From the NCBI RefSeq assembly GCF_044647545.1, contig NZ_CP172818.1: a DNA stretch of 64,000 nt. The stretch is one strand, 5' to 3'. The position numbers were made by a program, and so were the translations under genes. The stretch's first letter is position 1; every line of letters begins with the position of its first letter. This DNA is from Escherichia coli. GTDB taxonomy: Bacteria; Pseudomonadota; Gammaproteobacteria; Enterobacterales; Enterobacteriaceae. Positions 47,437 through 49,704 of this stretch are shown piece after piece. Below the pieces are notes generated by a model. That model saw nothing but the letters and a program-made list of their open reading frames with translations, was not told the DNA's origin and did no database searches.

Positions 47437-47660
47437 GATGAAGCAAGGAGGTGCCCCATGCGTCAGTTTTATCAGCACTATTTTACCGCGACAGCGAAGT
47501 TGTGCTGGTTGCGTTGGTTAAGCGTCCCACAACGATTAACTATGCTGAAGAACTGATGCAGTGGGAGGGGAGTCATTCTGACTACTGATTTGCGGACATC
47601 ATGTGTGACTGAGTATTGGTGCTAATCGCCACGCCAGCAGTGATTATTGCTGGCTTTTTT
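47437..47660 (+). ncRNA. sgrS: small RNA SgrS (glucose-phosphate stress sRNA), divergent from sgrR
   Basis: Begins gatgaagcaagg..., contains sgrT ORF, conserved pairing region gtgtgactgagtattggtg, and terminator hairpin gccagcagtgattattgctggc + T6. Confidence 0.85.
47458..47556 (+). CDS. sgrT: SgrT small protein (32 aa here, shorter than the 43 aa form I recall for K-12)
   Basis: MRQFYQHYFTATAKLCWLRWLSVPQRLTMLKN then stop; AGGAGG RBS upstream. Confidence 0.7.
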   Translation: MRQFYQHYFTATAKLCWLRWLSVPQRLTMLKN

Positions 47661-47687
47661 CTTTGGCGATTGAGCCGACGGGACAAA

Positions 47688-49704
<2,017 letters not shown>

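Follow-up and report, generated by a model that had tools for sequence, protein, structure and literature searches.

A setA-less sgrR–sgrS–leuD haplotype with a frameshifted sgrT in Escherichia coli

In the window, the 64-kb stretch of E. coli DNA analyzed here, the small RNA gene sgrS runs directly into the 3' end of leuD and setA is missing. We put at about 90% the probability that this is an ordinary setA-less haplotype of the thiB-sgrR-sgrS-leuD region, derived by one deletion, exchanged by recombination, later frameshifted in sgrT, and still encoding a working riboregulator. The anatomy of the locus, its distribution, its polarity against outgroups and its mosaic divergence were all observed here and carry this reading. 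The setA-less locus is an ordinary, already-known lineage polymorphism and opens no new question.

To define the locus we combined an Rfam search with open reading frames and comparison to FDAARGOS_497, the closest genome (Table 1). The SgrS match reaches 212.4 bits (E = 5.7e-60), where the model's gathering score is 37, and spans the entire model, positions 1-232 of 232. SgrR is 97% identical to the K-12 protein, as judged by tblastn on the near-identical FDAARGOS_497 locus. From 45717 onward the window sgrR has no mismatches to FDAARGOS_497, and below about that position its final codons and stop codon are replaced by homopolymer junk. The start of sgrS (47437) and the edge of sgrR (47369) diverge across a conserved promoter region that carries 2 substitutions relative to K-12 over 66 nt. 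At the other end, the leuD stop codon reads CTA on the plus strand at 47688-47690. Only 27 nt separate it from the T-run of the sgrS terminator, which ends at 47660, and both ends lie where the original prediction had placed them.

Table 1. Features of the sgrR–sgrS–leuD interval and two nearby RNA elements, in window coordinates.
Feature	Position	Strand	Basis or remark
TPP riboswitch upstream of thiB	44828-44927	(-)	Rfam; expected position
sgrR, transcriptional activator of sgrS	45711..47369	(-)	ORF, 550 codons
Divergent sgrR-sgrS promoter region	47370..47436	.	Same sequence as FDAARGOS_497
sgrS small RNA gene, non-K-12 allele	47437..47661	+	Rfam RF00534
sgrT remnant, 32 codons and TGA stop	47458..47556	+	ORF; Pfam PF15894
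SgrS base-pairing seed gtgtgactgagtattggtg	47603..47621	+	Same as K-12, 19 nt
sgrS intrinsic terminator, GCCAGCAG/CTGCTGGC-type hairpin, TTTTTT, then C	47633..47660	+	Hairpin 47633-47654, T-run 47655-47660
Deletion junction and spacer, former site of ancestral setA (~1.2 kb)	47661..47687	.	Without setA remnant
leuD, convergent with sgrS	47688..48293	(-)	ORF; RefSeq leuD annotation in the FDAARGOS_497-type locus lines up
Leucine operon leader	52413-52562	(-)	Rfam; expected position

A K-12-type strain has a 1179-nt setA in the gap between sgrS and leuD. Across the 64 kb of the window, searches with K-12 setA (blastn, E at least 0.76) and K-12 SetA (tblastn, E at least 3.7) returned only chance matches. 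This bears out the prediction that setA is missing between sgrS and leuD, and the spacing is not that of a K-12-type strain. Neither a remnant nor a relocated copy was found in the window or in 66 kb of FDAARGOS_497 using blastn with a word size of 7 and tblastn. About 27 nt past the sgrS terminator, where the setA ORF of an sgrS-setA operon would begin, lies leuD on the opposite strand. The DNA examined amounts to 64 kb, and the population counts given below suggest that setA is absent from the rest of this genome as well.

Expression of setA in K-12 depends on transcription continuing past the sgrS terminator (PMC4509938, PMC9765468). An SgrR-driven sgrS-setA co-transcript is impossible here because setA is absent. 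The original prediction had described this as an SgrS regulon without its SetA efflux arm. The arm is indeed absent, but the label does not hold, as setA is a gene co-transcribed by read-through and not an SgrS target (PMC4509938, PMC9765468). The lost output is an arm of the SgrR response and not part of the SgrS regulon.

To determine how common the setA-less junction is, we searched 5426 complete E. coli genomes by megablast with window positions 47371-47760, requiring at least 80% of the query to be covered. The sgrS/leuD junction was matched in 2143 of the 5426. In K-12-like genomes the match ends at query base 290, the end of the terminator. K-12 setA is present in 3241 of the same genomes, a count that complements that of the junction, and 3228 of the 3241 carriers have it at 99% identity or higher. 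About 40% of complete E. coli genomes are thus without setA. The locus had been put forward as the mark of a non-K-12 lineage; it is a non-K-12 haplotype, but at this frequency not a rare one.

Reference strains fit the same division. O157:H7 Sakai has the same compact sgrR-sgrS-leuD junction, with espY2 upstream of sgrR. The B2 strain CFT073 also lacks setA. At positions 7078-7536 of the CFT073 locus, an IS200C transposase gene sits at the setA-less junction, between the sgrS terminator and leuD. FDAARGOS_497 reads thiB-espY2-sgrR-sgrT(pseudogene)-leuD. The host of the window is an E. coli nearly identical to FDAARGOS_497 and probably belongs to the ST648 clone.

We also examined the gene order across the Enterobacteriaceae. 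A scan of a species-representative genome collection with the seed pattern gave 100 loci, which were then searched by tblastn with SetA, LeuD and SgrR; this set has no locus from E. fergusonii, E. marmotae, S. enterica or the type strain of E. coli. About 95 of the loci retrieved are enterobacterial sgrS loci. In essentially all non-Escherichia genera among them SetA starts 86-355 nt past the seed, and in most LeuD comes next. Genera with the sgrS-setA order include Citrobacter, Salmonella (arizonae and diarizonae), Enterobacter, Klebsiella, Raoultella, Leclercia, Lelliottia, Cedecea, and Trabulsiella. LeuD ends 97-102 nt past the seed in E. albertii, E. whittamii, Escherichia sp. E1V33, and E. 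coli SCPM-O-B-8794. These four loci have the window-type junction, GCTGGCTTTTTTCTTTTTGGCGATTGAG...ACAAACTAACGCAT, with only small variation.

Since nearly all outgroups have sgrS-setA-leuD, a setA 3' of sgrS is the ancestral enterobacterial state, and polarized against the outgroups setA was present first and lost later. A single old deletion of ~1.2 kb, with its breakpoints in two intergenic spacers, best accounts for the compact junction. When in the history of the genus it occurred can be placed only roughly from this sample, which leaves out E. fergusonii, E. marmotae and the type strain of E. coli.

The 3' half of sgrS is where the two haplotypes part. The seed gtgtgactgagtattggtg does not vary among the window, K-12, O157, CFT073, and the sister Escherichia species, and every haplotype retains the terminator stem. 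The 40 nt before the seed and the terminator loop differ from K-12. Between sgrT and the seed the sequence had been predicted to be unlike K-12 with the seed and the terminator retained, in agreement with what we found. The allele of the window, which takes in the 3' end of sgrT, the spacer and the terminator, matches FDAARGOS_497 at every base and is nearly the same in Sakai, CFT073, and the sister species. It is the non-K-12 SgrS allele of pathogenic strains, 88% identical to K-12, that Horler and Vanderpool described in 2009 (PMC2760817), and the legend of Figure 2 in that paper refers to a synteny map on which setA is marked.

In a sliding comparison of the K-12 and window types, identity is 95-100% over most of sgrR and the 5' portion of sgrS, then falls to 73-84% from ~60 nt before the seed onward. 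It is 82% over the last 100 nt of leuD and returns to 98-100% further in. An indel of setA within a locally hyper-divergent block is what alternative haplotypes leave when homologous recombination exchanges them. Breakpoints of this recombination inside sgrS, close to where sgrT ends, and at the 3' end of leuD explain the diverged look of the sgrS 3' part relative to K-12. The 3' third of sgrR (seed -1900 to -1350), beside the point of espY2 insertion, is likewise only 83-94% identical between the two types and the middle of sgrR 99-100%, making the 3' third a second hyper-divergent flank beside an indel.

The Escherichia sp. MOD1-EC7003 is mosaic at this locus. Its sgrR is 82-97% identical to K-12 per 100 nt, a divergence of species level, and from 150 nt before the sgrS seed into setA it is 98-100% identical, a pattern that places a recombination breakpoint inside the sRNA gene and supports the exchange of haplotypes directly. 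A modest novel reading is that the presence or absence of setA is a polymorphism shared across Escherichia species, which recombination with its breakpoint within the sRNA gene has kept up or shifted.

Together, we favor the following course of events. From the ancestral enterobacterial layout sgrR / sgrS-setA / leuD, a single deletion of ~1.2 kb in an early Escherichia lineage would have taken setA and its ribosome-binding site. With breakpoints in the two short intergenic spacers, it would have left the sgrS terminator ~35 nt from the leuD stop. The setA-less and setA-containing haplotypes would then have coexisted in Escherichia, swapped by homologous recombination with breakpoints inside sgrS (near the sgrT end) and at the leuD 3' end. 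Later, a 1-nt deletion in one clone would have frameshifted sgrT. SgrR would still induce SgrS, and the seed and Hfq-binding terminator would still repress ptsG and manXYZ.

The order of events inside E. coli may have been the reverse, and we hold this tentatively, at somewhat less than even odds. The setA-less arrangement would then be the native E. coli state inherited from the Escherichia ancestor, and the K-12-type segment (the 3' half of sgrS, setA and the last leuD codons) would have been regained in phylogroups A and B1 by recombination from a diverged, Escherichia-like donor. The two accounts differ only in polarity inside E. coli. Apart from MOD1-EC7003, the sampled sister species are setA-less with a window-type sgrS 3' end, and the K-12-type 3' end is ~73% identical to theirs over 100 nt, far below the flanks. 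MOD1-EC7003 itself shows the segment moving between lineages. K-12 SetA is 87-89% identical to its Citrobacter and Salmonella counterparts, much like SgrR (84-87%) and LeuD (88-92%), so a donor would stand at about the distance of Escherichia from these genera. Against this reading, no donor lineage was found among the loci compared, which do not include E. fergusonii or E. marmotae. The near-uniformity of setA among its carriers (at least 99% identity in 3228 of 3241) is consistent with a regain but may instead reflect the close kinship of phylogroups A, B1, and C. Loss by a single old deletion, followed by exchange of the two haplotypes, remains the account we prefer.

The sgrT frame is broken by a single missing base. 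One T is absent after 47546 (GCTTGAA to GCTGAA) in the window and FDAARGOS_497 relative to all other Escherichia sequences. The deletion shifts the frame at codon 31 and a TGA follows two codons later, just before (E/D)LMQW. The product is 32 aa long and ends ...TMLKN, with codons 1-29 encoding the K-12 residues. A full-length SgrT is 40-57 aa and contains (E/D)LMQW; that of the window ends in KN immediately before LMQW. The Pfam SgrT model (PF15894) matches at E = 4.4e-9 over positions 1-30 of 46 only, and the intact 43-aa CFT073 SgrT covers positions 1-36. No NCBIfam model matches the window SgrT, the CFT073 protein or even the intact protein of K-12, so NCBIfam is uninformative and Pfam was used instead.

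We found the exact 56-nt frameshift allele in 57 complete genomes, including one with ST648 as its strain name, and a version differing only by one additional base in a further 1043. The 32-codon sgrT ending in ...TMLKN was thus correctly foreseen and comes from a 1-nt deletion, but its attribution to general divergence does not fit an allele confined to 57 genomes of one clone.

In ~73 unique SgrT sequences aligned across genera, (E/D)LMQW is the most conserved stretch and LMQW is invariant. Loss of SgrT function is likely because the segment removed by the frameshift is this most conserved stretch, and from the sequence we infer that SgrT activity was lost. Part of the LMQW conservation may be RNA-structural, as in the Rfam model this segment is base-paired to the region where sgrT starts. 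In O157:H7, sgrT was lost by a switch from ATG to ATT at its start codon (PMC2760817, PMC4021124, PMC13293527), and we saw this change directly in Sakai. The 1-nt deletion of the window clone is a second, independent route to sgrT loss in E. coli.

Could the frameshift have arisen in sequencing, or could the 32-aa product still inhibit PtsG? Indel-type errors do occur elsewhere in the window, the N-terminal 30 residues still match the Pfam SgrT family, and neither PMC3901232 nor PMC2760817 maps the essential SgrT residues. We nevertheless regard both possibilities as improbable. An identical 56-nt allele in 57 independent complete genomes argues against an error, as does the annotation of the FDAARGOS_497 copy as a "frameshifted" pseudogene in RefSeq (PGAP). 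A working peptide would have to do without the most conserved part of SgrT, even if RNA-structure constraint could contribute to that conservation.

The hairpin of the 3' domain has a predicted stability of -19 to -20 kcal/mol. In the window 6 U stand uninterrupted, followed by a C and then more U; K-12 has 8. Terminators of Hfq-binding sRNAs are said to need a U-tail of seven or more (PMC4509938). The run of 6 is probably tolerated, given that all window-type Escherichia and Citrobacter share it. With the promoter region, seed and terminator stem intact, the riboregulator should still work, and SgrR-dependent induction and base-pairing repression of ptsG and manXYZ should be as in K-12, assuming full activity. 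Two accessory outputs would be gone, the PtsG-blocking SgrT peptide and the read-through SetA pump.

The quality of the sequence was assessed against FDAARGOS_497. Across 64 kb the two differ by ~5 substitutions, and the other differences fall into four clusters. One of them, at 47648-47683, lies in the locus itself: eight bases are deleted singly across the loop of the sgrS terminator, the second T-run, and the spacer. The distance from the terminator loop to the leuD stop is longer in FDAARGOS_497, by 8 nt, and longer in every uninterrupted setA-less Escherichia junction compared. None of the eight deletions is found in any other Escherichia sequence compared. They are probably sequence errors, a mild form of the degradation seen in the other patches. 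The true distance between terminator and leuD in this lineage is then probably ~35 nt and not 27. The stem of the terminator probably has 8 bp and its loop 7 nt.

At 19571-19812, ~440 bp carrying the ccdA/ccdB toxin-antitoxin pair in FDAARGOS_497 has become ~100 bp of A/C-rich sequence. The flanks of this patch resemble genuine sequence from which G and T have been lost, and the degradation is of the type seen at espY2. At 36031-36065 the window has a 23-nt insertion relative to FDAARGOS_497 in REP-like repeats between araD and araA. The cluster at 45080-45716 begins with deletions, followed by 588 bp (45129-45716) that is 55% A with homopolymer runs up to 30 long. These 588 bp replace 835 bp that include the T3SS effector-like espY2 and the sgrR stop codon. 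As the edges degrade progressively, the segment looks like degraded consensus and not biology. We also considered whether 45129-45716 is a run-length-distorted espY2. After homopolymer compression the similarity stands at z = 6.1 against shuffles, but it is weak because the reverse-complement control is raised too (55 against a shuffle mean of 41), and the idea was rejected.

The degraded patches at 19571-19812, 45080-45716 and 47648-47683 coincide with ccdAB, espY2 and the setA junction, islets whose gene content in this lineage is not that of K-12, which hints at a reference- or homology-guided consensus step. Three degraded patches at strain-variable islets should not be read as biology. 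That the missing setA is itself an assembly artefact, a collapsed or mis-joined region, might be suspected from the degraded sequence 2 kb away (45129-45716) and at 19571-19812 and from the eight suspicious deletions exactly in the spacer, but this is ruled out for practical purposes by the junction being present without those deletions in FDAARGOS_497 and O157 Sakai, by its match in 2143 complete genomes and sister species, and by flanks with no mismatches to FDAARGOS_497 over 18 kb. The sequence artefacts leave the conclusions about the locus unchanged.

The convergent arrangement raises a further possibility. In the K-12-type locus (positions 5500-5548) a GC-rich hairpin, GCCCGGUCAAAUGACCGGGC, followed by UUU lies just after leuD, and it is gone in the setA-less haplotype. 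On the leuD strand (47661-47690, minus) no hairpin-plus-U terminator is left before sgrS in that haplotype. A consensus scan found no canonical leuD-strand terminator in either haplotype, the K-12 hairpin having only 3 U. Since no recognizable leuD-strand terminator precedes sgrS, the convergent transcripts might overlap. On a plasmid in K-12, read-through of sgrS is ~50%. Transcripts of leuABCD might then run antisense across the SgrS terminator and seed, and SgrR-induced sgrS read-through antisense into leuD, linking leucine supply with sugar-phosphate stress. We think this unlikely. If true, leucine biosynthesis and the sugar-phosphate stress response would be coupled in ~40% of E. coli genomes.

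What is known of SgrR, SgrS, SgrT and SetA comes mostly from K-12, yet about two fifths of complete E. coli genomes, among them O157:H7, CFT073 and an ST648-like clone, are without setA, and caution is needed in extending it to them. In strains that are setA-less and sgrT-defective, the response appears to be reduced to the riboregulator alone. Such a state agrees with the literature, in which SgrS is seen as conserved chiefly for its core function of base pairing. It has also been published that the allele diverges and that some lineages can do without sgrT, and the frameshift is already flagged in RefSeq. Slightly new, and descriptive only, are the ~40% frequency, the sister-species junction, the breakpoint inside sgrS, and the ST648-associated sgrT frameshift.

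Compared with the sgrR/sgrS-sgrT-setA locus of K-12, the window has the same divergent promoter (with its 2 substitutions), sgrT codons 1-29, the 19-nt seed, and the terminator stem. The K-12 locus differs in having setA, an intact sgrT, a U-run of 8 instead of 6, and the hairpin after leuD; from the end of sgrT to the terminator the two are ~73-84% identical. Closer to the window are the SgrS loci of O157:H7 Sakai and CFT073, which share the non-K-12 allele of the 3' half and the absence of setA. Sakai also shares the compact junction and, like FDAARGOS_497, has espY2 upstream of sgrR. O157 inactivated sgrT by the ATG to ATT change, in contrast to the 1-nt deletion at codon 31 in the window clone. 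CFT073 retains an intact sgrT and has IS200C between sgrS and leuD; the window clone has the frameshifted sgrT. Like the Yersinia-type SgrS without sgrT (PMC2760817, PMC4021124), the window allele keeps its base-pairing stretch together with the terminator and is without the peptide function. The Yersinia sgrS wholly lacks the 5' part, whereas the window encodes a full-length RNA in which only the reading frame is broken.
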